64,000 bases of DNA from an uncultured Actinomycetes bacterium. Lineage in GTDB: Bacteria > Actinomycetota > Thermoleophilia > RBG-16-64-13. Below the pieces are notes generated by a model. It was not told the DNA's origin, did not search any database, and saw nothing but the letters and a program-made list of their open reading frames with translations. Location: positions 18,151 to 82,150 of the forward strand of contig CAMTXC010000010.1 in the NCBI GenBank assembly GCA_947085635.1, given 5' to 3'. A program made the position numbers and the translations under genes. This document shows positions 2,220 through 31,098 of this stretch, piece after piece (positions within the stretch are counted from its first letter, which is position 1; each line of letters starts with the position of its first letter).

Positions 2220-3434
2220 ATGGGACAAGAGAGCCGCAAATCCGATCTATTGAGCCTCGTGCTCATGCTGGGCTTCATGTCGGCCGCGCTGTCGCTCTCG
2301 ATGCTCGCGGTCATCGCTCCCCGCCTCGAAGACGACCTTGGGCTCACCGCCGCACAGGTGGGTCTGCTGATGTCCGGCTTCCTCTTCGCCTATGGATTAG
2401 CTCAGATCCCATCCGGCGCCGCCGCGACCCGATGGGGCGGCCTCATCTTGGCCGCAGCGTACGCATTCATGTGCGCGGGTAGCCTGCTTCTGGCGACAGC
2501 CGGCTCCTTCCCGCTCCTCATGGTCGCGAGGGTGATCCAAGGAGTGGGGGCGGGCATCGTCCTGCCCGCCTCTGGTGTGGTCATGGCCGCGCACATCCCT
2601 GGGGACCGTTTGGGGCGAGCCTGGGGCATTTTCGGGGTGGGTTGGGGCATCGGCTCCATCGTTGCACTCCTAATCCTGCCCAGTGTCGCCTCCGCGGGGG
2701 GAGTGGTTGCGGCATCGGTGACCGCTGCGGGGATTGTGACTGCGGCTGCATTGATCGCGCTCCGTCGCGGTGCCTTCACCACCAGAGGGGTCCGTGCTGC
2801 CGCGGGCACGGGCTGTGGTTTCTGGGCGGAGTTCTGGACGGTCGCGCGTAGACCGGCAGTGAACCTGTTGGGGCTCTTCAATGCTGCCGCTCTGTCGGTC
2901 GGCGTGGGAGCCCTCGCCTGGACGCCATCCTTTCTGGCCGACGAGCACGGCACGAGTACCGCGGTCGCCGCCTACCTAACGGCGGGCTTGGGGGCCGCTC
3001 AGATCGTGGCCACCCCCGCCGGAGCCGCGCTGGCAGGCCGCATCGGGCCGAAAGGCACGCTAGCCGCCGCGTTCATCGGGATGGCAGTGCTGACCGCGGT
3101 CGTGCCGTTGTTGCCCGGAGCCTTTCCCGTGTTCCTCGCCATCGTGCTGGTGGGTTTCTTCTCGATGATGTACTTTCCCCCCACCTTCGCCCAGGTGCCC
3201 CGAGTCGTTGATGCCCACCTTGTGGGCCTGGCCAACGGCTACGTGAACGCGGAGGGTTTCCTGGGCTCATTGATCGCCCCCTGGATCTTTGGGCTACTGC
3301 TCGACGCAGGACACGGCTACACGTCCGGCTACCTCTTCCTGACGGCCTGCGGAATAGCAGGCCTGATCGGCGTGCCCATCCTGTTCAACTTACTCGCACG
3401 GCAGCGAGCGACCGAACCGGGTAGCGCAGCGTAG
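2220..3434 (+). CDS. MFS transporter
   Basis: 404 aa, 12 predicted hydrophobic segments, MFS signature-like GLAQIPSGAAATRWGG loop after TM2. Confidence 0.75.
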   Translation: MGQESRKSDLLSLVLMLGFMSAALSLSMLAVIAPRLEDDLGLTAAQVGLLMSGFLFAYGLAQIPSGAAATRWGGLILAAAYAFMCAGSLLLATAGSFPLLMVARVIQGVGAGIVLPASGVVMAAHIPGDRLGRAWGIFGVGWGIGSIVALLILPSVASAGGVVAASVTAAGIVTAAALIALRRGAFTTRGVRAAAGTGCGFWAEFWTVARRPAVNLLGLFNAAALSVGVGALAWTPSFLADEHGTSTAVAAYLTAGLGAAQIVATPAGAALAGRIGPKGTLAAAFIGMAVLTAVVPLLPGAFPVFLAIVLVGFFSMMYFPPTFAQVPRVVDAHLVGLANGYVNAEGFLGSLIAPWIFGLLLDAGHGYTSGYLFLTACGIAGLIGVPILFNLLARQRATEPGSAA

Positions 3435-3494: not shown

Positions 3495-5630
3495 CTAGAA
3501 GGCCATCGCAGTCTCGGCCGCCAAGCGCAGCAGCTTCTCTACGTCGCCCACGTACTTCATCACGTACACGCCGATAGGATCGAGCACGAGTTCCCAGTCT
3601 GGGAATACCACCACAGTCGTCGTCACTTCTTCAACTACCGCGGGGCCAACCACCACCATGCCGGGCTGGAGCTTTGCTCCATCGTAGACGTTGATGTCGC
3701 GGTAGCCATGTCCGTCCTCGAAGAATCCCGGGCGCTCGCAGCGCAGCGCCACCTCGGGGTCTGCGTTCTCGACCAGTTCGAGGCGAGGAAGTTCGGGTTT
3801 CGGCACACGCCCATAGACCGTAGACTCGATGTTGATGATCTCGGCGATATTGTCCCGCTCGGCATACGTGAAGAGCGCCTCGTGTCGCTTGTGAAAAGCC
3901 TCCACGATCTCCGGGAGCTTGTCCTGGGTAATGCGGAACACGGGGATATCCACCGCACACTCGTGCACTTGGTCCACATAGCGCATGTCCACCGACCGGC
4001 TCACGTACACGTCCTCGGGAGCGAAGCCCTCGGCGATCAGATCGGTGCGGCCGGTGGTCTCCATCTCCTCGAACCGAGCGTTCAGCACGTCGGCTTCGGC
4101 CTGGTCCATGCGCACGGCGTACGAAGACAAGTGATTGTGCTTCACGTCCGAGATGATCTCTCCGAACGCACAGAAGCCGGATGCGATCCGGGGCACGATG
4201 ACCTGGGTGATACCCAACTCCTCGGCCAGCTTCGCGGCGTGCGCAGCGCCGGCGCCGCCACCCGACACGATGGCGAAGTCCCGTGGGTCGTGGCCACGCT
4301 CGATGGAAACCCGCCGAATCCCGGCCACCATGTTGCTGTTGACCACTCGGAAGATCCCCAGAGCCGCCTTCTCGGTGGAGATACCGAGGGGCTTGGCCAC
4401 CTTGTCCTCGACCGCCTTGAAGGAAGCCGCCGCATCGATCTCCAGTCGACCACCCAACAGGTGATGCTGGTTCAGGTAACCCAGCACGACCAAGGCGTCG
4501 GTGACCGTGGGGTGCACGCCGCCCCGCTTGTAGCAGGCCGGTCCGGGCTCCGCACCGGCACTCTCGGGACCCACACGCAGGAGCCCCATGGAGTCGACCG
4601 CGGCGATGGAGCCGCCGCCGGCGCCCAGGGTTTCCACCTGAAGCATCGGAATGCCGATGCGGTACCGGCTGAAGTCGAAGTCCTTCATGGTGTTGGTGCG
4701 GCCATTCGCCGCAAGGGCGATATCGAAGCTCGTGCCGCCCATATCCACCGTGATGATGTTGTTCCGCCCCAGACGCTCACCGAAGTAGAGTCCGGCGGCA
4801 GGACCGGCTGAGGGGCCGGAGTTGAGCGCGTAGACCGGCTTGTTCGACAGCACCTCCCCCGACGCCAGCCCGCCGTTGGACTGTACGTAGAGTATCTTGC
4901 GGTCGTAGCCCATCTCCTTAAAGAAGTCTTCGATCCGCTGGATATAGCGCGAGAGGATGGGCCCCAGGTACGCGTTCGTCGTGGTAGTCGAGGTGCGGGT
5001 GTATTCTCGGATCTGCGGGAAGATATCCAGCGAGGTCGAGATGAAGAGATCGGGCAGCTCCTCGCGGACGATCTCCTCCACCCTCCGCTCGTGAGCGGGA
5101 TTGAGGAACGACCAGATCAGCGAGATGGCCACCGCTTGGGCGCCGCTCTTGCGTATCTTCTCCACGGCCGTGTACACGCTGGCCTCGTCGAGGGGGATGC
5201 GCACGCTCCCATCCGACAGGACGCGTTCCTTGACGCCCAGCCGCAGATAGCGCGGCGCCAGAATCTGCGCCTGCGGGTAGTCGGCGTCGTAGCGGTGGCC
5301 GTCCTCCTTGTGGCCCAGCCGGATCTCGAGGGAGTCCTCGTGGCCCGCGGTGCACAGAAGGGCCGTCAGGGATCCTTTGTGCTCCAAGAGAGCGTTCAGG
5401 GCCACTGTGGTTCCGTGGATGATCATGTCGCACCGAGCCAGGAACTCGGCCGGCGAAAGGCCTTGGTCTTGGGCGATCTGTTCCAGCCCGTCCCGAATGG
5501 CATCAGGCGGATTGTGCGGAGTCGACGACGTCTTGTACAGCTTGATCGATCCGGTGCCATCTTCGAGGATGAAGTCGGTGAAGGTGCCCCCAGTATCGAT
5601 GCCGAGGCGAAAGCCGGTTCCTCCCGCCAT
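3495..5630 (-). CDS. hyuA: hydantoinase/oxoprolinase family subunit A (N-methylhydantoinase A / acetone carboxylase beta-like)
   Basis: 711 aa; N-terminus MAGGTGFRLGIDTGGTFTDFIL is the classic HyuA ATPase start; last gene of the 8-gene minus-strand operon, 1-nt gap from hyuB. Confidence 0.85.
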   Translation of the reverse strand: MAGGTGFRLGIDTGGTFTDFILEDGTGSIKLYKTSSTPHNPPDAIRDGLEQIAQDQGLSPAEFLARCDMIIHGTTVALNALLEHKGSLTALLCTAGHEDSLEIRLGHKEDGHRYDADYPQAQILAPRYLRLGVKERVLSDGSVRIPLDEASVYTAVEKIRKSGAQAVAISLIWSFLNPAHERRVEEIVREELPDLFISTSLDIFPQIREYTRTSTTTTNAYLGPILSRYIQRIEDFFKEMGYDRKILYVQSNGGLASGEVLSNKPVYALNSGPSAGPAAGLYFGERLGRNNIITVDMGGTSFDIALAANGRTNTMKDFDFSRYRIGIPMLQVETLGAGGGSIAAVDSMGLLRVGPESAGAEPGPACYKRGGVHPTVTDALVVLGYLNQHHLLGGRLEIDAAASFKAVEDKVAKPLGISTEKAALGIFRVVNSNMVAGIRRVSIERGHDPRDFAIVSGGGAGAAHAAKLAEELGITQVIVPRIASGFCAFGEIISDVKHNHLSSYAVRMDQAEADVLNARFEEMETTGRTDLIAEGFAPEDVYVSRSVDMRYVDQVHECAVDIPVFRITQDKLPEIVEAFHKRHEALFTYAERDNIAEIINIESTVYGRVPKPELPRLELVENADPEVALRCERPGFFEDGHGYRDINVYDGAKLQPGMVVVGPAVVEEVTTTVVVFPDWELVLDPIGVYVMKYVGDVEKLLRLAAETAMAF

Positions 5631-5631
5631 C

Positions 5632-7386
5632 TCAGACCCCTTTCCTCAACGCGCCGGTCGCGGCCATGTCGATCGCGAGGGTATCGGGATCAACAACCAC
5701 GCCGTACTCCTCACGGGCCGCCTGCGCCGAGACATAGCCGTCACGCACGTCACGCTTCACAAGATCGATATCCCGCTCGAATGGATCACCTACGCCACCC
5801 CCGCCGGGATTCAGGTTGGCCACTCGCTCGCCCGGGTTGATGACGGTAATCACGTTCTCGCGGAAGATGTCCACCGTTCCGTCGGCGTTGTAACGCACCA
5901 TCCTCCCAACCTTTGCGTCGGTGTACTTGCTGTAGGCCCCCGCGGCCGACGGAGCCGGATACCGTCGGCCTTCGCCGAAGGTGACCACGGTCATGGGATC
6001 CCAAATGGGCTCCACCTCCCAGGCCGTGCCCGAACCGCCCCGGTGCCTGCCGGCGCCTCCCGAATCCTCCAGAAGGCTGTACCTGCTGATGATGATGGGG
6101 TAGGAGTACTCCATGATCTCCACGTCGCCTGAGGTGAGCGCACCAAAGCAACACTCCGGACCGCACGCCGGCCAGCCATCGGTGATGTTGGTCGCGCCGC
6201 CACCGGAGATGATGGTAGCCAGGATCATGGACACGTACTCCTCACCGGTCCGCCTGTCCCTACCGGCGATGTTGAGGCCGTTGGAGTGGCCCCAAGAGGC
6301 CACTGCGCGGTCGGGCATGGCCTGCTCCAAAGCCAGGCGCACGGCGTCGGTGATGGTCTCGGAAGGAGTGGTTGTGCTGTTGACGCTAGGCGCGGGCTCC
6401 ATCGCGTTCGTCAGCGTACCTGGAGGGCCCACGTCGACGGTGATGGATCTGTAGAGGCCCTCGTTGTAGGGCGGCTCCACCTGAGCAAACATCATGATGC
6501 CAAGGTACACGCCCGAAAGCGAGTTGGCGGCGTAGCTGTTGATGAAGTAAGGAATCTGAGGCGGCGACTCCAGCTCCACGTGCATGGTGTCGCTCTTAAC
6601 CGTGATGGTCGCGGCGATCTCCAGATCGCCGTAGCCGTGGCCGGCGTCCTCGACCACGCCCGAGCCCTTGTACACGCCGTCAGGAATCTCGGTGATCATG
6701 CGGCGCATGCGGCGCTCAGCCATACTCATGAGCTCTGCGCAGCAGGCCTGCACTGTCTCCACTCCGTACTTGTCGAGCATGGCAATGAGGTTGCGCTCGC
6801 CGATCTTGCAGGCCCCGAGTTGTGCCCGCATGTCGCCAGCTTGGTCGCGGCGCGAGCGCACGTTCGTCAGGATGAAGTTGACGATGTCGCGACGCTCCTT
6901 GCCCTTCTCCCAGATCTTGATCGGAGGGATGCGCAGACCCTCGGCATAGCTGTCCTTGGCGTCGGGGTTGTAGCCGGCCGGCACCGGTCCCCCGATGTCG
7001 GTCACGTGGCCCTTGGAGACAGTCCAGAAGACCAACTCGTCCTTGTAGAACACAGGCTTGTACATGCAGCAGTCGACGATGTGACTGCCACTCCAGGCGG
7101 GGTCATTGTGATACATGACGTCGCCCGGGTAGATCTCGTCGCCGAAGTAGCTCGCCACAGTGCGCATGGCCGGCATCAGCGAGCCCAGGTGAATGGGGAT
7201 ATCCTGGCCCTGCAGCACCATCTCGGGCTTGCCGTCGAAAATGGTGTTGGAGTAGTCGTGAGCGATGTTGAACACGCTTGACCGGGCGGTCTTCTCGATC
7301 GTCAGCGTCATCTCACGCTGTGTCGACTCGAGCACCCCCCGGACGACCGCCAATGTGATGGGGTCGACTCTTCCTGACTGCGTCAC
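5632..7386 (-). CDS. hyuB: hydantoinase B/oxoprolinase family subunit B
   Basis: 584 aa; start MTQSGRVDPITLAVVRGVLE... typical HyuB; 4-nt overlap with upstream tautomerase gene (7383). Confidence 0.85.
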   Translation of the reverse strand: MTQSGRVDPITLAVVRGVLESTQREMTLTIEKTARSSVFNIAHDYSNTIFDGKPEMVLQGQDIPIHLGSLMPAMRTVASYFGDEIYPGDVMYHNDPAWSGSHIVDCCMYKPVFYKDELVFWTVSKGHVTDIGGPVPAGYNPDAKDSYAEGLRIPPIKIWEKGKERRDIVNFILTNVRSRRDQAGDMRAQLGACKIGERNLIAMLDKYGVETVQACCAELMSMAERRMRRMITEIPDGVYKGSGVVEDAGHGYGDLEIAATITVKSDTMHVELESPPQIPYFINSYAANSLSGVYLGIMMFAQVEPPYNEGLYRSITVDVGPPGTLTNAMEPAPSVNSTTTPSETITDAVRLALEQAMPDRAVASWGHSNGLNIAGRDRRTGEEYVSMILATIISGGGATNITDGWPACGPECCFGALTSGDVEIMEYSYPIIISRYSLLEDSGGAGRHRGGSGTAWEVEPIWDPMTVVTFGEGRRYPAPSAAGAYSKYTDAKVGRMVRYNADGTVDIFRENVITVINPGERVANLNPGGGGVGDPFERDIDLVKRDVRDGYVSAQAAREEYGVVVDPDTLAIDMAATGALRKGV

Positions 7387-7604
7387 TTGCCGCCTCCGTG
7401 AGTGGACGTGGTACGCGCTCGCCTATCGGAGAAGAATTCGCCTCCGAAAGCCCAATGGTCCGGCTCGTACTCCTCGATCAGTACGTTCACCTGATCCGCC
7501 GTCGTGTCGATGGTGCGTACGAGGGCATCGGTGATCTCGCGGACGAGCGCCCGTTTCTGTTCGGGCGTACGACCGGTCAGCATTTTGACCCCTACTATTG
7601 GCAT
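7383..7604 (-). CDS. 4-oxalocrotonate tautomerase family enzyme
   Basis: 73 aa, begins MPIVGVKMLTGRTPEQKRALVREITDAL (catalytic Pro1 after Met, beta-alpha-beta fold size); GGAGGGGG SD. Confidence 0.7.
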   Translation of the reverse strand: MPIVGVKMLTGRTPEQKRALVREITDALVRTIDTTADQVNVLIEEYEPDHWAFGGEFFSDRRARTTSTHGGGK

Positions 7605-7615
7605 GCCCCCTCCGA

Positions 7616-7825
7616 TTACTGCAAAGTCGCAACGACCTGCCCGGGCAAGAGCTCCTGGCCTTCCTCCACCTCGATGGAGGCGACCACGCCTCCCGTCTCG
7701 GCCGCGAGTTCCTGCGTCATCTTCATGACTTCTAGGGTCATGACCACTTCGCCGGCTTCGATGGACTGCCCCTTGGTCACCTTGATCTCAATGATCCGAC
7801 CGGGCAGTACTGTGACGATATCCAT
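7616..7825 (-). CDS. biotin carboxyl carrier protein-like (biotinyl/lipoyl attachment domain only)
   Basis: 69 aa; hammerhead biotinyl domain with EVMKM lysine motif (canonical E[AV]MKM); GGGAGGGAG SD. Confidence 0.75.
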   Translation of the reverse strand: MDIVTVLPGRIIEIKVTKGQSIEAGEVVMTLEVMKMTQELAAETGGVVASIEVEEGQELLPGQVVATLQ

Positions 7826-7913
7826 CCCTGCTCTCCCTCCCTTGATTGGCTGCGATCCGGGCCGCCGCGCCGCCCAGCTGCCGGCGTCTGCGACCGTGTC
7901 TTCAGGTCAACCG

Positions 7914-8693
7914 CTACCCGGCAAAGGCCTCCGCGAGGGGCGCGGACTCGATACTCACGGCCGCGAAGGCCGCGCGGATGGCCCTAGCGAACTCGATGGC
8001 GTGAGGCGTGTCCCCATGCAGGCACACAGAATCGGGCACCAGGTCCACGTCGACGCCGGTCTCGTTCGAACGAACCTTGCCCTCGAGCAAGCACCGCACC
8101 GCGCGCGCGGCCATGGCTTCGGCGCCCCCCCCGACGTTATCGATGTCGTAGGTGAAGATAATCTGGCCGTTGTCACGCATGCCGCGATCGGGATAGAACT
8201 CCACCACCACGGGCACGCCCATCTGCCTGCCGACCTCGTATGTCGCCGACTGCCGCATGCAATACACGGGCAGCTCGCGACCGATGCTTGCGACCGTCTC
8301 GAGGATGAGGCGCGACATCTGTTCGTCCTCGGCAGCCATCATGTACAAGGAACCGTGCGGTTTTACGTGCTGAAGGGTTTCCCCGGCCAGCTCCAGAAAG
8401 AGCTTCAGAGCGCCTGTCTGGTAGATCAAATAGTCCCTGATCTCCTCGGGCCTGCACTGCATGGGTCGCCGGCCGAACCCCATGAGATCGGGGAAGCCCA
8501 CGTGTGCTCCCACACGTACGCCCTTGGCCCTGCACATCCGCACGGTCTCGTACATTACCCGAGGATCACCCGCATGGAAGCCGCAACCGACGTTGGCCGA
8601 AGTGATGAAGTCGACCATCTCCTCGTCCCGGCCCATCTTCCAGAGACCGAAGCTCTCCCCCATGTCGCAGCTGATGTCGATCTTCATACCCAT
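7914..8693 (-). CDS. pxpA: LamB/YcsF family lactam utilisation protein (5-oxoprolinase subunit A-like)
   Basis: Track ORF 7914..9059 has a junk Arg-rich N-terminus overlapping pxpC. Real protein starts MGMKIDISCDMGESFGLW... (LamB/PxpA N-terminus) at ATG 8693 or 8687, directly after the pxpC stop TAA at 8696-8698. Confidence 0.8.
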   Translation of the reverse strand: MGMKIDISCDMGESFGLWKMGRDEEMVDFITSANVGCGFHAGDPRVMYETVRMCRAKGVRVGAHVGFPDLMGFGRRPMQCRPEEIRDYLIYQTGALKLFLELAGETLQHVKPHGSLYMMAAEDEQMSRLILETVASIGRELPVYCMRQSATYEVGRQMGVPVVVEFYPDRGMRDNGQIIFTYDIDNVGGGAEAMAARAVRCLLEGKVRSNETGVDVDLVPDSVCLHGDTPHAIEFARAIRAAFAAVSIESAPLAEAFAG

Positions 8694-8695
8694 GG

Positions 8696-9673
8696 TTATT
8701 TGATCACCGATTGCTCCGACACCGCGGATTTGAAAGCGCCGCGAAGGGAGCGGGCCTCTTCCTCGGTCACCACGTTGAAGCGCACGCGATCGCCGGGCTT
8801 GGCCTGACCAAGCTTCCACAGGGAGGTAGAGACCACCGTGAACGGGTTGACGAAACCGCCGAGGCTGGGACCGTCGACCATCAAGATGATGGGCGTCTGG
8901 CCGCAGAAGTTCACCGAGCCGACCGAATAGCCGTAGTCGATGATGTTCGACGGGTCCGAACCGTTCTCCGGCAGCTTGTGATGAGCCTTGTGGCCGAACT
9001 CGAAGTCGGGACCTTCGATCCGGTACCCGGTGCGATCGGAGAGCGAGGAAACCTTCCACTCATGCGAAGTGAACTGAGCGATGTCGCCCTCGGTCAGCCA
9101 GTCGTCGTGGGGGCCGAGCAGAACCTCGACCTCCCACGAAGCCGCAAGGACCGGCCTCGTCGACTCGACGATCCGGCGCCCCGTGCATTCGGCGAGCGGC
9201 CGGACCGAGGGAGCGGTCTTGAGCACGGTCCCAGCCTTGGCGGCACCGCCGTCGATGCCCCCGATGTTGGCCTTGACGAAAGTGGAGCAGCTGCCCATCA
9301 CCCTCGGGATATCAATGCCGCCGGCCAGCGCGACATACGAGCGGCAGCCCTGTGCGGCAAACCCGAAGCCGAGGAGGTCGCCCGCCGACACCGGCACGCC
9401 CTCCCACATGGGTATGGGTTGACCGTTGACCTTGGGCTTCATGTCGGCCCCACCCACGGCTATGACCGTGTCGGCTTGGAATCGGATCTCCGGCCCGATG
9501 AACTGTACTTCGAGCCCAGGCGCGCCCGGGGCGTTGCCCGCGGCCAGATTGGTCAGCTGGAACGAGAGCGCGTCCATGGGACCCGATGGCGGGATCCCCA
9601 GAGACCAGAACCCTATGCGGCCCGGGTAGTCCTGGACGCTCGTCTCGAGACCTGGTTTGATGAACTGAAGCAT
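8696..9673 (-). CDS. pxpC: KipA/allophanate hydrolase subunit 2 family (5-oxoprolinase subunit C-like; biotin-dependent carboxyltransferase domain family)
   Basis: Start moved to ATG 9673 (MLQFIKPGLETSVQDYPGR..., GGAAGGAGG SD); cyclophilin-like KipA domain; 325 aa. Confidence 0.8.
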   Translation of the reverse strand: MLQFIKPGLETSVQDYPGRIGFWSLGIPPSGPMDALSFQLTNLAAGNAPGAPGLEVQFIGPEIRFQADTVIAVGGADMKPKVNGQPIPMWEGVPVSAGDLLGFGFAAQGCRSYVALAGGIDIPRVMGSCSTFVKANIGGIDGGAAKAGTVLKTAPSVRPLAECTGRRIVESTRPVLAASWEVEVLLGPHDDWLTEGDIAQFTSHEWKVSSLSDRTGYRIEGPDFEFGHKAHHKLPENGSDPSNIIDYGYSVGSVNFCGQTPIILMVDGPSLGGFVNPFTVVSTSLWKLGQAKPGDRVRFNVVTEEEARSLRGAFKSAVSEQSVIK

Positions 9674-9689
9674 CGTGACGTCCTCCTTC

Positions 9690-10601
9690 CTACTCGACCG
9701 TGGTTGTCGACGTCTCGCCCGCGGGAGAGACCGAGTACCCAACGTCCTTCTTCGCTTGGCTGAAGAAGGCTGTGTACCGGGCCACAGCGAAGAGCTCGTA
9801 ATCCACGACGTTGTAGGTATAGGTGCCGGCCGCGACCTCTTGTTCGATCTCGATGAATTCGCGGGCGTCTATGGGCACGAACTTCACTCGGTCGCCCGGC
9901 TTCAGCAGAACAGGCGACTTGGCGAACGGCGCAAACTTCTGGGCTCCGTCCCAGATCGGCACCGGCGTGCGGCCGAAGATCTGATAGCCGCCCGGCGTAT
10001 TGACCGGGTAAATAGCCGTGCAGGAGCCGCCCATGCCCACGGTGCCCTGGGGCGTCCACGTACGCGGGGGGTTGTACTTGGGCACGGTGAGCACGTACCG
10101 GGGGTCCAGGGACATCATGAAGGGCAGGCCCGGCCAGAAGCCCACTGCGGCCACCCAGTATTGAGGCGTAGAGTGCACCTTGATGAGTTCGCGCACGTCA
10201 CGCAGACCGTTCAGGCGGGCGGTAGCCTCCGGGTTGGGCTCGATCAGCTTGATCTTCTTGCGGTAGTCGTCCACAGCTGCCTTCGTCCACGGGTCGTCGT
10301 AGCAGCAGGGCAGCTCCACGAGCCGTGACGGCAGGGTGATGTCGGCCGTCGAGCCGAGTGAGGCCACCCGCTCGGCCAGAGCCGCCTTCAGTGTGGCGAA
10401 GTCGGTCTCCTCGGGCTCGTAGTGGACCAGGAGGGTAGCGAACGACGGCACCGTCTCGACCACGCCCGGTATCGGCTCGTTGGCGACCGTCTCCGCCAGC
10501 CCGAGGGCCTTGAAGTTCAGATCGAGGTTCATCTCGTCTCCGAACTCCAGCAGCAGGTAGCGGTCGCCGGAGTAGAGATAGCGCGGCTCCTCGAAGATCA
10601 T
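9690..10601 (-). CDS. pxpB: KipI/allophanate hydrolase subunit 1 family (5-oxoprolinase subunit B-like) with roughly 60-aa C-terminal extension
   Basis: 303 aa; MIFEEPRYLYSGDRYLLLEFGDEM... KipI fold; 4-nt overlap with accC stop; longer than usual KipI (about 220-250 aa). Confidence 0.8.
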   Translation of the reverse strand: MIFEEPRYLYSGDRYLLLEFGDEMNLDLNFKALGLAETVANEPIPGVVETVPSFATLLVHYEPEETDFATLKAALAERVASLGSTADITLPSRLVELPCCYDDPWTKAAVDDYRKKIKLIEPNPEATARLNGLRDVRELIKVHSTPQYWVAAVGFWPGLPFMMSLDPRYVLTVPKYNPPRTWTPQGTVGMGGSCTAIYPVNTPGGYQIFGRTPVPIWDGAQKFAPFAKSPVLLKPGDRVKFVPIDAREFIEIEQEVAAGTYTYNVVDYELFAVARYTAFFSQAKKDVGYSVSPAGETSTTTVE

Positions 10602-11971
10602 TGGGCGCTCCTTCTTCCGGTTCCATTGGCGAACAAGCGTTGCAGATAGTAGGTGTCGGTCTCACCGTCCGCGAAGGCCGGATCGGCCATGATGCCCTTG
10701 TGCAGGCCGATGTTGGTGGCGATCCCCTCGACCACGAAGCCGTCGAGCGCGTCGCGCATGCGAGAGATAGCCTGCGTCCGATCGGCTCCCCAGGTGATGA
10801 GCTTCGCGATCATGGGATCATAGTAGTAGGAGACCTCGTAGCCTGCGCTCACCCCGGCGTCCACGCGCACGCCGTCGCCTGTGGGGAGCTCCAAGGCGGT
10901 GATCTTGCCGGGGGAGGGCAAGAAGTTCTTGTCTGGGTCTTCCGCGTAGATGCGGCACTCGATCGCGGCCCCCGTTGTCGTGACCTCGTCCTGCGCGAAA
11001 CCGAGGGGCTCGCCGGCCGCCACCTTGAGCTGCAGCTGGACCAGGTCGCGGCCGGTGACCATCTCGGTGACCGCGTGCTCTACCTGTATACGAGTGTTCA
11101 TCTCCAGGAAGTAGTACGACTCGTCGGCGTCCATGAGGAACTCGACCGTGCCCGCATTGACGTAGCACACCGACTCAGCCGCCTTGACCGCGTCGGCCCC
11201 CATCCGCGCGCGGGTCTCGGGCGACAACCGGGGAGAGGGCGACTCTTCCACCACCTTCTGATATCGGCGCTGGATGGAGCACTCCCGCTCGAAGAGATGC
11301 ACCACCTTCCCGCCCTTGTCGGCGATGACCTGGAACTCCACGTGACGCGGCTCCGGGATGAAGCGCTCGAGGTACAGCAAGGGGTCGCCGAATGCGGCTT
11401 GGGCCTCACGATGAGCCCGCTTGAGGTTCTCCTCCAGCTGTTCGGGCCCGTTGATGACGTGCATGCCGATGCCCCCGCCTCCGGCCGCGGCCTTTACGAT
11501 GACCGGGTAACCCAGCTTCGCAGCCATCTCGCCGATGCCGTCGTGCAGGTCGCGCGAGGCCTCAGAACCCGGGATCAAGGGCACACCGGCCTGCCCGACG
11601 ACCAGGCGGGCGTGGGCCTTGTCGCCCATCGTGCGGATGGACTCGTGTCCGGGGCCGACGAACACATAGCCCTCGGCCAGGCAGCGCTCGGCAAAGATGA
11701 AATTCTCGGCCAGGAAGCCGTATCCCGGATGGACGGCGTCGACCTTCGCCACCCGGGCCACCTCGAAGAGCCTGTCTTGGTTCAGATAGCTCTGCGGGGC
11801 CGGAGGCGGTCCGATATTGTGGGCCTCGGTGGCCATGGACACGTGGGGCGCGTCCTTGTCGGCATCACTGTACACCGCGACCGTTGCGATACCGAGGGCC
11901 TCGCACGCCCGGATCACGCGGCAGGCGATCTCCCCCCGATTCGCGACAAGAACCTTGTTGAACACCAGCAC
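10598..11971 (-). CDS. accC: biotin carboxylase (ATP-grasp)
   Basis: KVLVANRGEIACRVIRACEALGI..., ATP-grasp and BC C-terminal domain; GTG at 11971 or more likely GTG at 11965 (AGGAGG 8 nt upstream). Confidence 0.85.
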   Translation of the reverse strand: MLVFNKVLVANRGEIACRVIRACEALGIATVAVYSDADKDAPHVSMATEAHNIGPPPAPQSYLNQDRLFEVARVAKVDAVHPGYGFLAENFIFAERCLAEGYVFVGPGHESIRTMGDKAHARLVVGQAGVPLIPGSEASRDLHDGIGEMAAKLGYPVIVKAAAGGGGIGMHVINGPEQLEENLKRAHREAQAAFGDPLLYLERFIPEPRHVEFQVIADKGGKVVHLFERECSIQRRYQKVVEESPSPRLSPETRARMGADAVKAAESVCYVNAGTVEFLMDADESYYFLEMNTRIQVEHAVTEMVTGRDLVQLQLKVAAGEPLGFAQDEVTTTGAAIECRIYAEDPDKNFLPSPGKITALELPTGDGVRVDAGVSAGYEVSYYYDPMIAKLITWGADRTQAISRMRDALDGFVVEGIATNIGLHKGIMADPAFADGETDTYYLQRLFANGTGRRSAQ

Positions 11972-12139
11972 CCCCTCCTGGATGAGTCCGCATAGGTGGG
12001 ACCCACGCGTAGGACTCGGAAACCGAAAACACTACGGATCTAGGCACGCGCAATAGGCCCCACCCCCTCGTGGATGCCCGCAGGCGCAGATCGGTGGCCA
12101 AACGCCCGTATCGCCCCGGGCCGGTTCACCTGCGGATGT

Positions 12140-12232
12140 CCCCCGAGTGCGTGACCCGCGACCGGGCACAACGCACCGCTCGCTGAGTGTACGAGAGCGC
12201 ACTATCTCAGGGCCATAGTCGCCTAGAACAAC
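12140..12232 (-). repeat. conserved bipartite upstream element, copy A (second copy at 22651-22732)
   Basis: Top strand 12184-12232 TGAGTGTA-N16-CAGGGC-c-ATAGTCGC-ct-AGAACAA plus CCCCCGAGTGCG at 12140-12151. Identical blocks and identical spacing at 22684-22732 and 22651-22662. Confidence 0.5.
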
Positions 12233-12259
12233 AACAGCACGCCGCTTTGTGCCCCCGGA

Positions 12260-14092
12260 CTATTTCGGCCGTTCGCGCTTCTCCCGGCGCCGCGTCGCGG
12301 CCAGCTCCCCGGGGAGCACCACCGCCGGATACCCTACCAGCAGATTGCCGAGCCCGCTGCCGGGGTCGATCTCCGCCGCGACGTCCACGCCCGTGAGCGC
12401 GGACCCAGCGCCCGCAAGGGCGGCGGGGCCAAGCGAATCAAGCATCGCCTCCGCACGGAACGCGAGGTACAAGTCGGCGACGACCCGTGTGGTATCGAGC
12501 GACGACCCCAGCAACGCCTCCGCCTTCCGGAGCCGGTACCGCAGGGTGTTCGGGTGGATGAAGAGCCGGCTCGACGCCTCTCGAACGTCTCGGTCGACCT
12601 GCACATACATCCGCATTGTCCGCAGCAGGGTGTCGTTGTGCTCTTTGTCGTGGATGGCGAGCGCCGATAGGCCCGCATCGGCCAGGGCCCGCAGCCGCGA
12701 GACCTCGAGACCGAACAAGAACGAGGCCGTCGGGCCCAGGTCGAAGAACAGGCGCACGCGGTGGTCGTCGCCGTCGCGACGCGCCACCGCCAGAGCCTCC
12801 TGAGCCTCCGCATACGACCTCGGCATCGCCTCCGTGGCTCGATGTATCGCAGATGCGCCCAGTGCCAGATCCGACCCTGGAAACACACCGAGCAACCGCT
12901 CGCGCAGCTCCTCCAACACAGTGCGCAGCTCGGTCGGGGTCCTCGCACCGAGCTGGGCGGCCGCGACCACCACCCCCGAACGGACCATCGACAGTATGGG
13001 CGCCTTCCGGAGGGAGAAGAAACTCCCCACCGCGTCCTCGAGATCGTTCAGGAGATCACTCTGCTTCGGCTCCGAAGGGCGGGAGGGAGGGTCGGCGCGG
13101 CCCCGGTCACCGGGGCCACACATGAGCACCAGGTAGTCCAGGACCGGATCGAACCCGAAATGCATCGCCTGCTCCCGCAGGTCGTCTGGCCGGCCCAGGC
13201 CGAGCACCAGATCGTCGAGCAGCCCTCCCCGCATCTGCCGCCACAGCTGCTCGGCTTCCCGGCTCTTCATGGCCTCGAGCGATAGCAGCTTCTGCGCGTA
13301 CGACGCGATGACCACGGTGAACTCGGGAACGTGTTCTTTCTCTGAGTAGGCAATCGCCAAGACCCGCTCGAGGCGACCGTTGCTCCACACATCCCTGAAC
13401 AGTACCTGCATGCCGTCCACGGCGTGGACCCGCAAGATGTCGGACGCCGGGTCGTCCAGGCGCGGCTCGTAAGCCTCCCAGATGCGGGCTACCGCCTCTG
13501 GAGGCATCCGAGGGCCCTTCTCGGTCATACAAGCTACTCTGCCCACGTGATCGAACAACACCACCGTGGCCGAGAGCAACACGGCCAGGCTGGACACCAG
13601 GTAGTCGGTGCCCCGCTCCTCGAGCAACGCGCTGAGCAGGTGGGCCTGCACCGACAGCCGGCGTCGGAGAAGGTACACGTTGCGGTTCACCAACGAGTCA
13701 AGGATGAACGACGTCACTGCCTTGAACGGGGTCTCGAAAGGCACTTCGAACACCGCAAACCCGATTGCGTCGGCCTCTTCCAGGAGCGCCGCCGGAGTCT
13801 GGTGCATGTAGATGCCTACCCCGAGCCCGAGGGCGGACATGCCGCCCCCGGCCAGGACCCGGACCAGCCTGCTCTGCAGCTCCGGACTGTCCCGTATGCT
13901 CATTCCCGTCGTGAGCAGGACGTCTCCCGGATTGATCCAACGCGTAGGGTCGGGTATCTCAGAGGTGTGCACGCCCAACACCAGCCTGCCCACTCCTTGA
14001 TGCCCGGCAACCAGCCGCAGACCGAGGTCGCTTTCGGCGAAGAGATCCTCGACCGTCAGCCTGCTGGCAGCTTGCGGGTGGGTCGAACGCAC
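12260..14092 (-). CDS. PucR family transcriptional regulator
   Basis: 610 aa; PucR N-terminal LTVEDLF..LGLRLVAG motif, GGDEF-like middle, C-terminal HTH (IHPNTLRYRLRKAEALLG); GTG start. Confidence 0.75.
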   Translation of the reverse strand: MRSTHPQAASRLTVEDLFAESDLGLRLVAGHQGVGRLVLGVHTSEIPDPTRWINPGDVLLTTGMSIRDSPELQSRLVRVLAGGGMSALGLGVGIYMHQTPAALLEEADAIGFAVFEVPFETPFKAVTSFILDSLVNRNVYLLRRRLSVQAHLLSALLEERGTDYLVSSLAVLLSATVVLFDHVGRVACMTEKGPRMPPEAVARIWEAYEPRLDDPASDILRVHAVDGMQVLFRDVWSNGRLERVLAIAYSEKEHVPEFTVVIASYAQKLLSLEAMKSREAEQLWRQMRGGLLDDLVLGLGRPDDLREQAMHFGFDPVLDYLVLMCGPGDRGRADPPSRPSEPKQSDLLNDLEDAVGSFFSLRKAPILSMVRSGVVVAAAQLGARTPTELRTVLEELRERLLGVFPGSDLALGASAIHRATEAMPRSYAEAQEALAVARRDGDDHRVRLFFDLGPTASFLFGLEVSRLRALADAGLSALAIHDKEHNDTLLRTMRMYVQVDRDVREASSRLFIHPNTLRYRLRKAEALLGSSLDTTRVVADLYLAFRAEAMLDSLGPAALAGAGSALTGVDVAAEIDPGSGLGNLLVGYPAVVLPGELAATRRREKRERPK

Positions 14093-14195: not shown

Positions 14196-14786
14196 ATGCA
14201 GTCCGCACCGAACCTGGGGGCTATCTTGGATCCAGATACCAACCTGCCCGAGGCTGTGCTTTTTCTCATCTCCGATCCGAAGAAGTGCACGGGCTGCCAC
14301 AGCTGCATGCTGATGTGTGCACTCGCACATGAAGGCAAAGCTCAGTTCAGTACCTCTCGCATACTGATCTCGGAAGACCGGTTCGGATCGTTCCCGGTAG
14401 ACATCACGATTGGCACCTGCCGTCAGTGTAAGGATCCGGCCTGTCTCAGTGCATGCCGCGTGGGGGCCATATACATTGATCAAGAGCACTTCGGCGCCCG
14501 TGTGATCGACCCGGAGCTGTGCACGGGGTGCAAGAGGTGTGTCAATGCCTGCCACTTCTACCCGAGTCGCGTCCGTTTTCAGGCTCAGTTAAAGAAGGCC
14601 GTGAAGTGCGACCTCTGCCGGGACACGCCTTACTGGGAGCACGAGAGAGGTCAGCTGGCCTGCGTGGAAGTGTGCCCGGTGAATGCCCTCGCCTCCACCA
14701 CTGAGACGCCGCTCGGGCTCTCGGGGTACGAGGTCAACCTCCGGCGCACGGGCGGCTGGAGCAAGCTCGACCTGCCTACCGACTAG
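14196..14786 (+). CDS. 4Fe-4S ferredoxin-type electron-transfer subunit (DmsB/AorA-like, four Cys clusters)
   Basis: Motifs CTGCHSCMLMC, CRQCKDPACLSAC, CTGCKRCVNAC, CDLC...CVEVCP. Confidence 0.75.
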   Translation: MQSAPNLGAILDPDTNLPEAVLFLISDPKKCTGCHSCMLMCALAHEGKAQFSTSRILISEDRFGSFPVDITIGTCRQCKDPACLSACRVGAIYIDQEHFGARVIDPELCTGCKRCVNACHFYPSRVRFQAQLKKAVKCDLCRDTPYWEHERGQLACVEVCPVNALASTTETPLGLSGYEVNLRRTGGWSKLDLPTD

Positions 14787-14793
14787 GAGCCCA

Positions 14794-16839
14794 ATGAACG
14801 GCTACGCGGGCAACATCCTGAGGATCGACCTCACCAACAGGACGACCGAGATCGTCCCAACCGAAACGTACAAGGACTGGGGCGGCGGCCACGGCCTCGC
14901 CGCCGCGCTCTTCTTCGATCTGGTGCCGGACAAGACCGTCGGCTGCTTCGACCCCCGCAACACACTCGTGATCGCTCCCGGGTTGTTCGCGGGCACACTC
15001 GTTCCGGGCTCGTCCCGGGCCGAACTTGTGGGCATTCAGGCCCAGTCGTATCCGCACGAGTGGTTCGGCCGCTCCAACTGCGGGGGCCGTTTTCCGGCAA
15101 TGCTCAAGTATGCGGGCTACGACGCCCTGGTGCTGGAAGGCGCCGCCGACGCGCCGACGTGGGTGCACATCTCCGATGGCGCCATCACGTTTCATGACGC
15201 TACCGGCCTGTGGGGACTCAACACCTTCGACACGCAAAAGGCGATCGTGGGCAAGATCGGCGTCACGAATGAGGGTGAACGGCCCGTTGTCCTGGCCATC
15301 GGTCCGGCCGGAGAGAACCTCAGCCGCATCGCCACCATCCAACACGACGCCGGCTGCGCGTTCGGCCAAGGTGGTTTCGGTGGCGTCTGGGGTTCCAAGA
15401 AGCTGAAGGCCATCAGCATGATCGGCACGGGGGGGGTCCCCATAGCCGACCCCGGTGGCTTGATTGACGCCCGTCTCTGGTCGGAGCGCACCTACTCCTA
15501 CGACGCCGACATGCCCCGAGTGCACCAATGGCAGGAATTCATCACCTCGCACTTCGGCGGGCACCCGAACCGCCAGTGGGTGCCCTTCGAGAAATCGACC
15601 CGGCGGACCTCGGGCTGCTGGAACTGCCATCTAAACTGTAAGCCCAAGACCGCCAGCCAACTGGGCAACTCCGCCCATTGCATCACCGCCCTTTTCTACC
15701 AGGACTGGGACCTCGAGAGGCACGGGAGGGTCACCGAGATCTCGGGCAAGGCGGCCAACCTGCTGGGCGAGCTGGGCATCAATGCCTTTGAAGCCTACGA
15801 GCTCGTCGCGTACCTGCACACCCTCCGTGAGGGGGGCGAGCTTGGCCCGGGCAAGAGGGTCCACACCACTCTGCCATTGGACGACATCGGCGAGATGCGC
15901 TTCATCGAAGATCTGCTGCATCGCATCGCCTACCGCATCGAGATCGGAGACGACCTCGCGGAGGGGCTGCCGCGGGCAGCGGAGCGCTGGGGGCGGCTCG
16001 ACCAGGACCTCGCCACCGGCGACCTAAAGGCGCCGTTCTGGGGCTATCCCATCCACTACGATCCGCGCACCGAGGTCTACTGGGGCTACGCGTCGCTCCT
16101 GACGAGCCGTGACGTCAACTGCCACGATTTCAACGTGGCGGCCTTTTGGATGCCCACCTTGGACATCATGAACGACCGGGAGCCCCTGCTCACCGCCGCA
16201 GAGGTGGCGGACGTCATCGCCGAGAAGACGGTGCCCTACTGCGACCCGTTTATGATCGACTTCTCGGACGAGAACCTGTACTCGATCCACATGGCACGGA
16301 CCACAGCCTGGCTACTGCACTACAGTCTGTTCTGGAAGCAGTCATGCGGACTTTGCGACAACGCCTATGCCGACTTCATCAACCCCTACGGGCCGAACAA
16401 CCGCGGCTTGACCCCGGAAGGCGAGGTTCGCTTCTACCGAGCGGTCACCGGACATGAACTCGACTTTGCCCAGTCCCTGGAACAAGGCCGGCGCATTCTC
16501 AATCTCGACCGAGTGATCTGGACCTTGCAGGGCCGGCACCGCGACCAAGAGGTCTTCCCTTCCTTCGTCTACGACGTCGACGCGGTGGGTACGTCGTACG
16601 TGCCGGGCAAGGCCGCCGCCTACTACTGCCCGGTATACGTCGACGGGCAGTGGTCCTATCAGAACGTGGTGCCTCGGAGACTTGATCGAGAAGGGGTGGA
16701 GCAGTTCAAGACGCTGTTCTACGAACTCGAGGGCTGGGACTCGTCGTCCGGGCGGCCCACGGTCGATGGCTTAAGGGCCATCGACTTGGAGCGGGCAGCC
16801 GATGCACTCGAAGCCGCCCAAAGCAAGTTGGTGGGCTAA
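14794..16839 (+). CDS. aldehyde:ferredoxin oxidoreductase family (tungsten/bis-pterin) enzyme
   Basis: Start moved to ATG 14794 (AGGAG SD, 5-nt spacer). N-terminus MNGYAGNILRIDLTNRTTEIVPTETYKDWGGGHGLAAALFF and ...AIGPAGENLSRIATIQHDAGCAFGQGGFGGVWGSKKLKAI match AOR N-terminal and cofactor-binding domains; 681 aa. Confidence 0.85.
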   Translation: MNGYAGNILRIDLTNRTTEIVPTETYKDWGGGHGLAAALFFDLVPDKTVGCFDPRNTLVIAPGLFAGTLVPGSSRAELVGIQAQSYPHEWFGRSNCGGRFPAMLKYAGYDALVLEGAADAPTWVHISDGAITFHDATGLWGLNTFDTQKAIVGKIGVTNEGERPVVLAIGPAGENLSRIATIQHDAGCAFGQGGFGGVWGSKKLKAISMIGTGGVPIADPGGLIDARLWSERTYSYDADMPRVHQWQEFITSHFGGHPNRQWVPFEKSTRRTSGCWNCHLNCKPKTASQLGNSAHCITALFYQDWDLERHGRVTEISGKAANLLGELGINAFEAYELVAYLHTLREGGELGPGKRVHTTLPLDDIGEMRFIEDLLHRIAYRIEIGDDLAEGLPRAAERWGRLDQDLATGDLKAPFWGYPIHYDPRTEVYWGYASLLTSRDVNCHDFNVAAFWMPTLDIMNDREPLLTAAEVADVIAEKTVPYCDPFMIDFSDENLYSIHMARTTAWLLHYSLFWKQSCGLCDNAYADFINPYGPNNRGLTPEGEVRFYRAVTGHELDFAQSLEQGRRILNLDRVIWTLQGRHRDQEVFPSFVYDVDAVGTSYVPGKAAAYYCPVYVDGQWSYQNVVPRRLDREGVEQFKTLFYELEGWDSSSGRPTVDGLRAIDLERAADALEAAQSKLVG

Positions 16840-18708: not shown

Positions 18709-18719
18709 CCCCCGCTTGC

Positions 18720-19871: not shown

Positions 19872-19912
19872 AGCCTCTCCCTGTCAGATGTTATCAGCAC
19901 ACTCAGTGTGTC

Positions 19913-21019: not shown

Positions 21020-21060
21020 CAGCCGCTCTCCTCGGATCGGTGCTTCGGCTACCCAAACGT

Positions 21061-22374: not shown

Positions 22375-22650
22375 CGAATCCCCTCCTGTTCCGCTTCACT
22401 GGACGCACGTCGCAGGACTCCCTACGGAGTTCTACGCCGACCCACCCCGCCCTACTCTCTCCGCAATCTCTGCCCCCCGGTCATACGCGTTGACATGCCA
22501 GCGAGGGAGTATCCCTTCGAACGTGACTGGAGCCGCGCGGGGATTCCTTGCGAGTCGGACGACAGAAGGCAATCAAAGAACAACCCGTCGCTCACGGCTA
22601 CCCCCTCTCCCGTCCCGTAAGGCACGGCCCCCCATATCAGATCGGCGACA

Positions 22651-22732
22651 CCCCCGAGTGCGCCGGCCGCCGAAGTCTATTCGTGAGTGTAGGTTAGCGG
22701 TGTGGGGCAGGGCTATAGTCGCACAGAACAAT
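22651..22732 (-). repeat. conserved bipartite upstream element, copy B (partner of 12140-12232)
   Basis: Top strand 22684-22732 TGAGTGTA-N16-CAGGGC-t-ATAGTCGC-ac-AGAACAA and CCCCCGAGTGCG at 22651-22662; 35/49 identity with copy A. Confidence 0.5.
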
Positions 22733-22774
22733 AACCAGAAGCCAGTTTGTTCCAAGGAACCAGGTCCGATGATA

Positions 22775-24199: not shown

Positions 24200-24305
24200 A
24201 TGCGCGGGACCGGGCCCATCTCCCCGAGCCCCGCGGTATCGGTCCGGACGCGCCGGGGGGCCCGCAAGGCCCCCCGGCGCTTGGACAACGCAGTGTCCGC
24301 CGGTC

Positions 24306-26968: not shown

Positions 26969-26969
26969 C

Positions 26970-29901: not shown

Positions 29902-29902
29902 G

Positions 29903-31070: not shown

Positions 31071-31098
31071 TCAACGCTGAATGCTGGAGGCCTTCGGA

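Follow-up and report, generated by a model that had tools for sequence, protein, structure and literature searches.

A putative lactam catabolic operon with caprolactamase-type and urea-carboxylase-type modules in an uncultured actinobacterium

The subject of this analysis was a cluster of eight minus-strand open reading frames (ORFs) at positions 3495-11971 of a 64,000-nucleotide stretch of DNA from an uncultured Actinomycetes bacterium (contig CAMTXC010000010.1, positions 18,151 to 82,150; the whole stretch is referred to below as the window). The cluster combined a predicted orthologue of the two-subunit caprolactamase CapB/CapA, encoded by the hyuB and hyuA genes, with a five-gene set for a biotin carboxylase (BC), KipI-like and KipA-like proteins, a LamB protein and a stand-alone biotin carboxyl carrier protein (BCCP), and with a small gene for a 4-oxalocrotonate tautomerase (4-OT). 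We read it as a PucR-regulated lactam catabolic operon encoding two parallel ATP-driven ring-opening enzymes, which would act on different substrates, probably of different ring sizes; in our judgement this reading had about an even chance of being correct. Lactams were also a theme of the first-pass annotation of this DNA, and they stood as the most plausible substrate class. Each part of the operon came from a known family, CapAB had been characterised and the five-gene module was common, so that what was new was their union in one operon. The data show to which families the proteins belong, how the modules are distributed and that the synteny is conserved, whereas the substrates, the N-carboxylation step proposed below and the division of labour between the modules are what we infer.

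Lactams with rings of five to seven members are very stable chemically. They are encountered as monomers of nylon, as solvents and, in the metabolism of amino acids and polyamines, as dead-end products. To our knowledge, only two enzyme types open such rings, and both are poorly understood mechanistically. The operon set a caprolactamase orthologue beside a dedicated biotin carboxylase system under one regulator. Moreover, it drew attention to a five-gene biotin module that was common in environmental bacteria and also present in a cultured model rhizobium. If the two modules merely worked in parallel, the operon would be a useful yet ordinary catabolic gene cluster.

The caprolactamase genes and the layout of the operon

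HyuA and HyuB passed the NCBIfam equivalog models for CapA and CapB (1042.8 and 1045.8, respectively, against a cut-off of 1000 each). Their best solved relative was the caprolactamase of Pseudomonas jessenii (6yra), with 795 bits for HyuA against 6yra_A and 887 bits for HyuB against 6yra_B. The ATP-binding motifs DTGGTFTD, DMGGT and GAEPGP of HyuA aligned to 6yra_A, and Asp44, His102, Asp105 and His127 of HyuB corresponded to CapB residues 41, 99, 102 and 124, namely the Asp-His-Asp-His metal tetrad that had been mutated in published caprolactamase work. Homologues of CapB with 67-78% identity were common and were named caprolactamase in NCBI records. We assigned the pair as a predicted CapB/CapA orthologue in which CapA would be the ATP-binding subunit and CapB the metal-dependent hydrolysis subunit.

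Other members of this enzyme family were much more distant. The N-methylhydantoinase 7hk5 gave only 455 and 241 bits, and the acetone and acetophenone carboxylases also scored much lower than 6yra. The first-pass annotation had raised a route from creatinine to sarcosine through an N-methylhydantoinase and an isochorismatase-family amidase. This route was not supported: the HyuAB pair was of the CapAB type (795 and 887 bits versus 455 and 241), and the isochorismatase-family gene (26970-27776) lay 15 kb off in another gene block and reached no specific family cut-off. The same annotation had left room for a ketone carboxylase. However, the acetophenone carboxylase models fell far short of their cut-offs (ApcC 411 versus 1500, ApcA 251 versus 1250, ApcD 139 versus 1500) while the CapA and CapB models were passed, and the ketone carboxylase reading was rejected on these scores.

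The characterised enzymes provided the simplest frame for the operon. CapAB converts caprolactam to 6-aminocaproate at the cost of one ATP and has a strict need for bicarbonate, the reason for which is not understood (PMC8453981). Its orthologue in Pseudomonas putida, OplBA, prefers valerolactam, accepts some caprolactam but no butyrolactam, and also needs bicarbonate (PMC11033972). On simple monocyclic lactams CapAB and OplAB are catalytically complete alone in vitro (PMC8453981, PMC11033972). In genetic work on P. putida, the use of butyrolactam depended on a PxpABC paralogue and that of valerolactam and caprolactam on OplBA, each of the two enzymes being substrate-specific (bioRxiv 10.1101/2021.12.09.472016). 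Since genetics and in vitro data agreed on this substrate split, the simplest reading of the window operon was that it encodes parallel lactam openers of complementary ring sizes under one regulator. In the caprolactamase branch, CapA would use ATP, together with bicarbonate, to activate the lactam, and CapB would hydrolyse the activated lactam at its metal site to an omega-amino acid.

All eight ORFs had a strong, near-full-length Pfam domain match (Table 1). Coordinates and Pfam matches bore out the first-pass annotation with respect to the eight genes, their order and strand, and the union of BC/BCCP, KipI/KipA/LamB and a HyuAB-type enzyme in one cluster. Its account of the spacing, two 4-nt overlaps and gaps of 1-3 nt elsewhere, was right only in part. 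The overlaps were present (ATGA at BC/KipI, GTGA at 4-OT/HyuB), as were the short gaps at KipA/LamB (2 nt) and HyuB/HyuA (1 nt), but three junctions were wider, namely KipI/KipA (16 nt), LamB/BCCP (88 nt) and BCCP/4-OT (11 nt). The start of KipA was placed at the ATG at 9673, which was directly preceded by AAGGAAG and matched the MLxxIKPG start of all homologues.

A consensus scan revealed no sigma-70-like promoter inside the cluster. On the strand of the operon, the single terminator-like site within the cluster was a weak match at 5716..5702, inside the hyuB coding sequence; two weak matches on the opposite strand lay inside accC (the BC gene) and kipI. The 88-nt spacer between LamB and BCCP was not conserved among relatives, and neither this spacer nor the leader of the operon had any match in Rfam at E<=1. 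The earlier proposal of a tightly packed candidate transcription unit was supported, and nothing argued against a single transcript.

Table 1. Predicted genes and intergenic leader of the operon and its upstream neighbours in the window
Feature	Position	Strand	Length	Basis and remarks
BC	11971..10598	-	457 aa	Pfam Biotin_carb_N / CPSase_L_D2 / Biotin_carb_C
KipI-like	10601..9690	-	303 aa	Pfam CT_C_D, E 4e-56
KipA-like	9673..8696	-	325 aa	Pfam CT_A_B, E 2.5e-88
LamB	8693..7914	-	259 aa	Pfam LamB_YcsF, E 5e-85, model positions 1-238 of 239
BCCP, stand-alone	7825..7616	-	69 aa	Pfam Biotin_lipoyl; motif EVMKM
4-OT	7604..7383	-	73 aa	Pfam Tautomerase, E 6e-19; Pro after Met1
HyuB (predicted CapB)	7386..5632	-	584 aa	Pfam Hydantoinase_B, E 1e-151
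HyuA (predicted CapA)	5630..3495	-	711 aa	Pfam Hydantoinase_A with its N- and C-terminal domains
Intergenic leader, presumed promoter/operator	11972..12259	-	288 nt	Gap between PucR and BC
PucR-family regulator, likely operon activator	12260..14092	-		Pfam PucR + GGDEF_2 + HTH_30
4Fe-4S protein + aldehyde:ferredoxin oxidoreductase	14196..16839	+		Pfam Fer4 families, AFOR_N/AFOR_C; divergent from PucR

The biotin-dependent module

The five genes for BC, KipI-like, KipA-like, LamB and BCCP were predicted to encode a split biotin enzyme of the urea carboxylase type together with LamB. The BC passed the NCBIfam accC subfamily model PRK08591 (624.6 versus a cut-off of 597) and contained the glycine loop AAGGGGIGM as well as the motifs EMNTRIQVEH and ECRIYAEDP. 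The KipA-like protein obtained 331 bits with the urea carboxylase model versus 159.5 with that of PxpC (cut-off 500). Among solved structures it was closest to yeast urea carboxylase 3va7 (241 bits), followed by E. coli PxpC (119) and MSMEG_0435 (95). Its identity was 41-44% to annotated bacterial urea carboxylases and 32% to E. coli PxpC. In a test derived in this analysis, which used 49 positions conserved in >=93% of 33 fused proteins with BC, carboxyltransferase and BCCP domains, the window KipA kept 43/49 and E. coli PxpC 31/49. The KipI-like protein behaved in the same way: its residues 9-287 aligned to positions 805-1088 of the urea carboxylase model (197 bits) and its residues 7-282 to residues 839-1118 of the yeast enzyme, versus 110.4 with the PxpB model, below the cut-off of 145.55. 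On the full urea carboxylase model TIGR02712 (cut-off 1303.85) the split pieces reached 530.6, 331.4, 197.1 and 33.4 bits, and their sum was still below the cut-off.

The first-pass annotation had named three of these genes pxpB, pxpC and pxpA. The assignment to the KipI, KipA and LamB families held, but the names were too loose, since the KipI-like and KipA-like proteins failed the PxpB and PxpC equivalogs and scored much higher against urea carboxylase. A plain PxpABC was rejected on these cut-offs and on the presence of a dedicated BC and BCCP. LamB passed the NCBIfam PxpA subfamily model NF003814 (292.2 versus 226) and stayed below the cut-off of all PxpA equivalog models; it contained the motifs DMGESFG, GFHAGDP, GAHVGFPD, KPHG and LHGD and was proposed to be the ring-opening hydrolase of the module.

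Two details that had been called unusual, a C-terminal extension of ~60 aa in the KipI-like protein and the EVMKM motif of the BCCP, were real, but both turned out to be family norms. The Pfam CT_C_D match of the KipI-like protein stopped at residue 221/303 and that of the PxpB model at residue 242, whereas the extension aligned to urea carboxylase. The median length among 77 relatives was 289 aa, compared to 218 aa for E. coli PxpB. The lysine of EVMKM was located 34 residues from the C-terminus (the 35th residue counted backwards), which is the canonical distance, and the motif in relatives was EVMKT in 44/50, EVMKM in 5/50 and EVMKQ in 1/50, so that 49/50 fitted EVMK(T/M). The BCCPs of the five-gene family (loci L009-L091) mostly had EVMKT rather than the textbook EAMKM, and the window lineage had EVMKM. 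This motif may be a signature of the family, or it may be tied to recognition by the biotin ligase.

KipA also departed from urea carboxylase in the loop that leads up to its invariant PSN motif. Here the window protein had KLPENGSDPSNIID, including an insertion of three residues. The signature GGEAGLHPSNxHD, defined in this analysis and not taken from the literature, was shared by urea carboxylases and urea amidolyases, the fungal LamB-linked enzymes had GGxGGSHPSNV(L/F)D, and the window's clade had K(L/A)PE(N/H)GS(D/E)PSNIID. The differing loop fitted a carboxyltransferase whose substrate is not urea. According to a rough neighbour-joining tree without branch support, the window KipA belonged to a 20-member clade of split, LamB-linked proteins, which was sister to a large clade of fused urea carboxylases and LamA proteins; E. 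coli PxpC fell outside. Split homologues of this kind had already been noted, as proteins whose function was unknown, in an older phylogenetic survey (PMC3199775), and our full-text literature searches found no biochemical description of a biotin-linked KipIA/LamB system.

These data bear directly on the idea that the biotin module has no link to lactams and is nothing more than a carboxylase of urea or guanidine in split form. The domain set is the same and KipA is closer in identity to bacterial urea carboxylases than to PxpC. However, the Azospirillum uca locus contained UAAP1/2, allophanate hydrolase and a urea transporter, whereas the window operon and its relatives had none of them and carried LamB embedded in the gene set instead. 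Rfam revealed no guanidine riboswitch in the leader of the operon, the loop was KLPENGSDPSNIID with its insertion rather than the urea carboxylase signature, and the window's clade lay outside the fused urea-carboxylase clade. We considered this explanation highly improbable.

A regulatory role of KipI and KipA deserved even less credence, and we gave it hardly any. Here the two proteins would sequester the biotin of a BCCP in the manner of MSMEG_0435-0436, which act in this way on the acyl-CoA carboxylase of mycobacteria; homologues have indeed been found to bind BCCP biotin and to inhibit a carboxylase (PMC13012033). Nevertheless, the window operon had its own BC, BCCP and LamB, and the similarity of KipA to urea carboxylase (241 bits, with 43/49 conserved positions kept) exceeded that to MSMEG_0435 (95 bits).

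By analogy with urea carboxylase, the biotin module of the favoured lactam operon would probably N-carboxylate its lactam before hydrolysis by LamB. Namely, BC would use ATP and bicarbonate to carboxylate the biotin on the 69-aa BCCP, and the KipA/KipI-like carboxyltransferase would move the carboxyl group onto the ring amide nitrogen, just as urea carboxylase makes allophanate. LamB would then hydrolyse the activated N-carboxy-lactam, and the resulting carbamate would shed CO2 to leave the omega-amino acid. The net reaction would be lactam + ATP + water to amino acid + ADP + phosphate, and the role of bicarbonate would be catalytic. If N-carboxylation occurs, urea amidolyase chemistry would be seen to cover lactams as well, the genetics of fungal lamA/lamB, now 30 years old, would have a mechanistic explanation, and new catalysts for mild hydrolysis of lactams and nylon monomers would become available.

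A broader and more tentative proposal was that the five-gene module represents an undescribed enzyme class, a biotin-dependent carboxylate-then-hydrolyse lactamase that N-carboxylates the ring and opens it with LamB. Such a class would be common among bacteria of soil and sea and would stand to urea carboxylase as ancestor or sibling. This is possible, with the chances somewhat against it. If it were true, the repeated pairing with CapAB described below would point to a shared carboxyl-activation chemistry for unstrained lactams, which could account for the unexplained bicarbonate requirement of caprolactamase.

Distribution and pairing of the two modules

When metagenomes were scanned with a profile of KipA, 80 loci were obtained, and a scan of the genome collection with KipA yielded only four, so that the synteny evidence came mostly from metagenome contigs. 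The eight-gene order recurred in locus L008 (KipA 81% identical), in L105 and in fragments identical to the window. Additionally, locus L001, an Actinomycetes metagenome-assembled genome (MAG) with a KipA 89% identical, had the same order minus 4-OT. Because the gene order recurred in these loci, the layout was not due to chance; the synteny search that the first-pass annotation had called for found the cluster elsewhere, and the full eight-gene layout was confined to a small actinobacterial lineage.

The five-gene module was far less restricted. The order LamB-BC-KipI-KipA-BCCP was found without HyuAB in about 40 metagenome loci, which were nearly all of those with sufficient flanks and in which KipA was 50-56% identical, and also on plasmid pRL12 of Rhizobium johnstonii 3841, again without HyuAB. 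The only metagenome locus of this kind with HyuA and HyuB nearby was L086, and these were distant (32% and 25% identical).

Conversely, capBA was found without the biotin module in several contexts. A Thermoleophilia MAG (L098, CapB 84% identical) had the order PucR-unknown-capB-capA, locus L103 had aminotransferase-capB-capA-RidA, and locus L104 had ABC transporter-capB-capA-AraC. In a separate lineage (L100-L102, CapB 74-78% identical) capBA was convergent with LamB-KipI-KipA genes of a different subfamily (37-39% identical), and no BC or BCCP gene was found within 8 kb. In all three of these loci the convergent set began with a luciferase-like monooxygenase gene, giving the order luciferase-like monooxygenase-LamB-KipI-KipA; in L102, moreover, KipI was separated from KipA by a HipA_C toxin-domain gene plus a small ORF, and capB from capA by two small ORFs.

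According to these gene orders, the pairing of CapBA with LamB-KipIA has arisen at least twice and is far from obligate. Such a recurrent but non-obligate pairing would be expected of enzymes of the same metabolism rather than of one complex, and the adjacency in the second lineage argued for a shared pathway.

The product of the tautomerase gene started with MPIVG, with the Pro1 of the family, and passed TIGR00013 (72.3 versus a cut-off of 56.9), although it failed the DmpI and PRK00745 equivalog cut-offs. Of what we take to be the canonical residues Arg11 and Arg39 (P. putida mt-2 numbering), Arg11 was kept and position 39 was Asn in a hand alignment. A search with the 73-aa protein found only members of the lineage and two weak matches. 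The gene was present in L008 and L105 and cleanly missing in L001: a comparison of L001 12040-12080 with window 7383-7615 showed that BCCP ran straight to hyuB, with the final ~17 nt of the tautomerase gene, GGAGGCRGCAAGTGA, kept. This segment carries the ribosome-binding site and start codon of hyuB. So precise an absence with GGAGGCRGCAAGTGA retained suggested a clean deletion in L001 or an insertion in its sister lineages, and since the gene was missing in L001, 4-OT was dispensable or accessory.

The operon was not one fused machine but a set of two modules, each complete in itself, and a tautomerase that was dispensable. The first-pass annotation had envisaged a single sequence of HyuAB, tautomerase and biotin-dependent transfer, which did not survive the facts that CapAB is complete alone, that the five-gene operon stands alone elsewhere and that L001 lacks 4-OT. 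In its integrated form, HyuAB would activate or enolise a ketone or lactam, the tautomerase would shift the product and the biotin enzyme would carboxylate carbon. All the parts do lie in one operon, the relatives of HyuAB include acetone and acetophenone carboxylases, and the bicarbonate need of CapAB is unexplained. We nevertheless judged this version very unlikely, because the acetophenone carboxylase models failed by a wide margin where CapA and CapB passed, the modules were found independently of each other and the tautomerase was missing in L001. Moreover, carboxyltransferases of the urea carboxylase type act on nitrogen and not on carbon, as is established for urea carboxylase.

A milder version, in which both modules act in turn on one compound, was unlikely but less so. 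Either the compound would have two ring-amide bonds or another lactam would be formed from it; candidates include cyclic imides, cyclised products of diamines and lactams that are bicyclic or substituted. The tautomerase would handle an enamine/imine or enol/keto intermediate between the steps. In favour of such a pathway were the tight co-operonic packing with 4-OT translationally coupled to hyuB, the capBA/LamB-KipIA adjacency that arose at least twice, the RidA-family gene after capBA in L103, a hint that intermediates of the imine or enamine type occur, and the wealth of cyclic-amide hydrolases in the window (a dihydropyrimidinase equivalog and a second hydantoinase-like gene). On the other hand, each module was far commoner alone, 4-OT was dispensable in L001, and CapAB and OplAB alone fully convert simple monocyclic lactams (PMC8453981, PMC11033972).

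We also looked at the neighbours of the five-gene module for substrate clues. A class-III aminotransferase gene followed the module in L009, L027 and L034 and preceded capBA in L103; its position after the module fitted an omega-amino-acid product. Among 150 neighbours, a set that left out the gene directly after BCCP in L009, there was no decisive signal: BPD_transp_2 accounted for 12/150, a modest excess of ABC transporters, and class-III aminotransferase for 3/150. Individual loci offered further associations. In L093 (the Thermomicrobium roseum megaplasmid) a variant of the module stood beside the biotin transporter BioY. In L093 and in L002 (Ammoniphilus) the LamB/KipIA/BCCP module adjoined genes of the xanthine dehydrogenase family or XdhC, and in L010 and L011 a beta-carbonic anhydrase gene was close to the module. 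These neighbours fit a role in the breakdown of N-heterocycles with a need for biotin and bicarbonate.

Several points weighed against the reading of the operon as two parallel lactam openers. No aminotransferase was recognised among the annotated genes around the operon, the annotation covering positions below 40 kb, and the literature yielded no demonstration of lactam N-carboxylation by an enzyme of the urea carboxylase family. The nearest fungal LamA-like protein was just 37-38% identical, and the window's clade was sister to the fused clade and outside it. The tight packing and the 4-OT/hyuB coupling could equally mean one sequential pathway. 5-Oxoproline, itself a gamma-lactam, is a possible substrate of the biotin module. 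Finally, the contexts of capB were sampled in five independent lineages, which is a small sample.

Regulator, flanking genes and known systems

The PucR-family gene directly upstream of the operon held the same position in L001 (78% identical) and L008 (62%), and a PucR gene also preceded capBA in the Thermoleophilia MAG L098. A weak terminator-like hairpin followed the PucR stop codon (12253..12236). When the leader at 11972-12259 was compared with L001 7422-7703, conserved blocks were found, e.g., GGCGACTATGGCCCT, TCTCGTACACTCA and CGAGGGGGTGGGGCCTAT, which are candidate promoter or PucR operator elements.

The place beside PucR was likewise held in L001 and L008 by the 4Fe-4S protein (89% and 81% identical, respectively) and the aldehyde:ferredoxin oxidoreductase (80% and 71%). 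The oxidoreductase may perform a later step, namely the oxidation of an omega-oxo acid. The pair hints at anaerobic oxidation of an aldehyde or a cyclic imine tied to the lactam operon, for example in the use of polyamine-derived lactams.

The regulator and these neighbours were relevant to a further explanation, in which the cluster serves metabolite repair: a biotin-dependent 5-oxoprolinase and a CapAB acting on other cyclised omega-amino acids would detoxify dead-end lactams. PxpABC is the known bacterial 5-oxoprolinase, and LamB passed the PxpA subfamily model. Furthermore, a study in P. putida proposed that its lactam hydrolases may clear cyclised gamma-aminobutyrate (GABA) and 5-aminovalerate (bioRxiv 10.1101/2021.12.09.472016). 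However, the window proteins failed both the PxpB model (110 versus 145.55) and the PxpC model (159.5 versus 500), E. coli PxpC was only 32% identical, and the PucR-type catabolic regulator with the conserved transporter and aldehyde:ferredoxin oxidoreductase neighbours looked catabolic. We regarded metabolite repair as rather unlikely and retained the catabolic reading.

Other parts of the window were noted in passing. At the end of capA, two convergent plus-strand genes encoded a ScdA/hemerythrin-type iron-sulfur repair protein (1261-1971) and an MFS transporter (2220-3434); the contigs of the relatives stop short of the position of the latter. A second cyclic-amide block occupied 17809-27776 on the minus strand. 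It contained a PotA-like ABC transporter (two ATPases with TOBE_2, a permease and a binding protein), a dihydropyrimidinase/D-hydantoinase that passed its equivalog (525 versus a cut-off of 393), a second hydantoinase-like amidohydrolase, a type II-like asparaginase and the isochorismatase-family hydrolase. The ABC transporter of this block was also present in L008, upstream of the aldehyde:ferredoxin oxidoreductase genes. On the plus strand, 28038-40097 encoded DUF3870, a pair resembling succinyl-CoA synthetase/ATP-citrate lyase, an HpcH/citrate-lyase-beta-like lyase, MmgE/PrpD, a fumarate-reductase-type flavoprotein, an FrhB-like protein, an amidohydrolase and an OYE/FadH-type Fe-S flavoenzyme. 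This gene run looks like a pathway of the dicarboxylate or N-heterocycle fermentation type.

With respect to known systems, the caprolactamase half of the operon was closest to CapAB of P. jessenii and OplBA of P. putida, with which it shared the two subunits, the capB-capA order, the passed equivalogs, the ATP motifs and the metal site. Unlike in those systems, the window genes were in one operon with a biotin module and a tautomerase; the P. jessenii cap cluster carries an aminotransferase and a dehydrogenase (PMC6061476).

The other half corresponded to the stand-alone five-gene operons of R. johnstonii 3841 pRL12 and of soil and marine metagenomes, which had the same five proteins (50-60% identical), the long KipI and the EVMK(T/M) motif of the BCCP. 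In those operons, however, LamB usually came first, CapAB, 4-OT and PucR were absent and the usual neighbours were ABC transporters.

The PxpABC enzyme of E. coli (YbgJKL) and the butyrolactam hydrolase PP_2920-2 of P. putida had LamB, KipI and KipA proteins as well, and their ATP-dependent opening of gamma-lactams resembled the role proposed for the module. In contrast to the window proteins, PxpB of E. coli was 218 aa long without the extension. The identities were only 29-35% and the window proteins failed the PxpB and PxpC equivalogs. In E. coli, pxpBCA was flanked by ybgI and nei, and the 8-kb stretch examined contained neither a BC nor a BCCP gene.

Urea carboxylase/urea amidolyase (EC 6.3.4.6; 3va7, 5i8i) shared the carboxyltransferase fold family, including the C-terminal part of KipI. 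It also shared the proposed logic, in which ATP- and biotin-dependent N-carboxylation activates an inert amide and hydrolysis follows. The differences were that the window subunits were split, that LamB replaced allophanate hydrolase and that the loop motif was not kept.

Finally, the first-pass annotation had considered the combination not to be a described system, which was overstated, since a fused urea-carboxylase-like protein beside LamB exists in fungi. In Colletotrichum, a fused 1238-aa protein with the same domains was encoded divergently beside a LamB gene, which we take to be the arrangement of the Aspergillus nidulans lamA/lamB lactam-utilisation locus. In fungi, lamA and lamB are needed for the conversion of 2-pyrrolidinone to GABA. 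Similar to the window operon, the fungal system had the BC, CT_A_B, CT_C_D and BCCP domains adjoining a LamB_YcsF gene. It differed in that these domains formed one chain of 1238-1241 aa, at the low identity given above, rather than four proteins, and in that the window's clade was sister to the fused clade and had its own loop signature.

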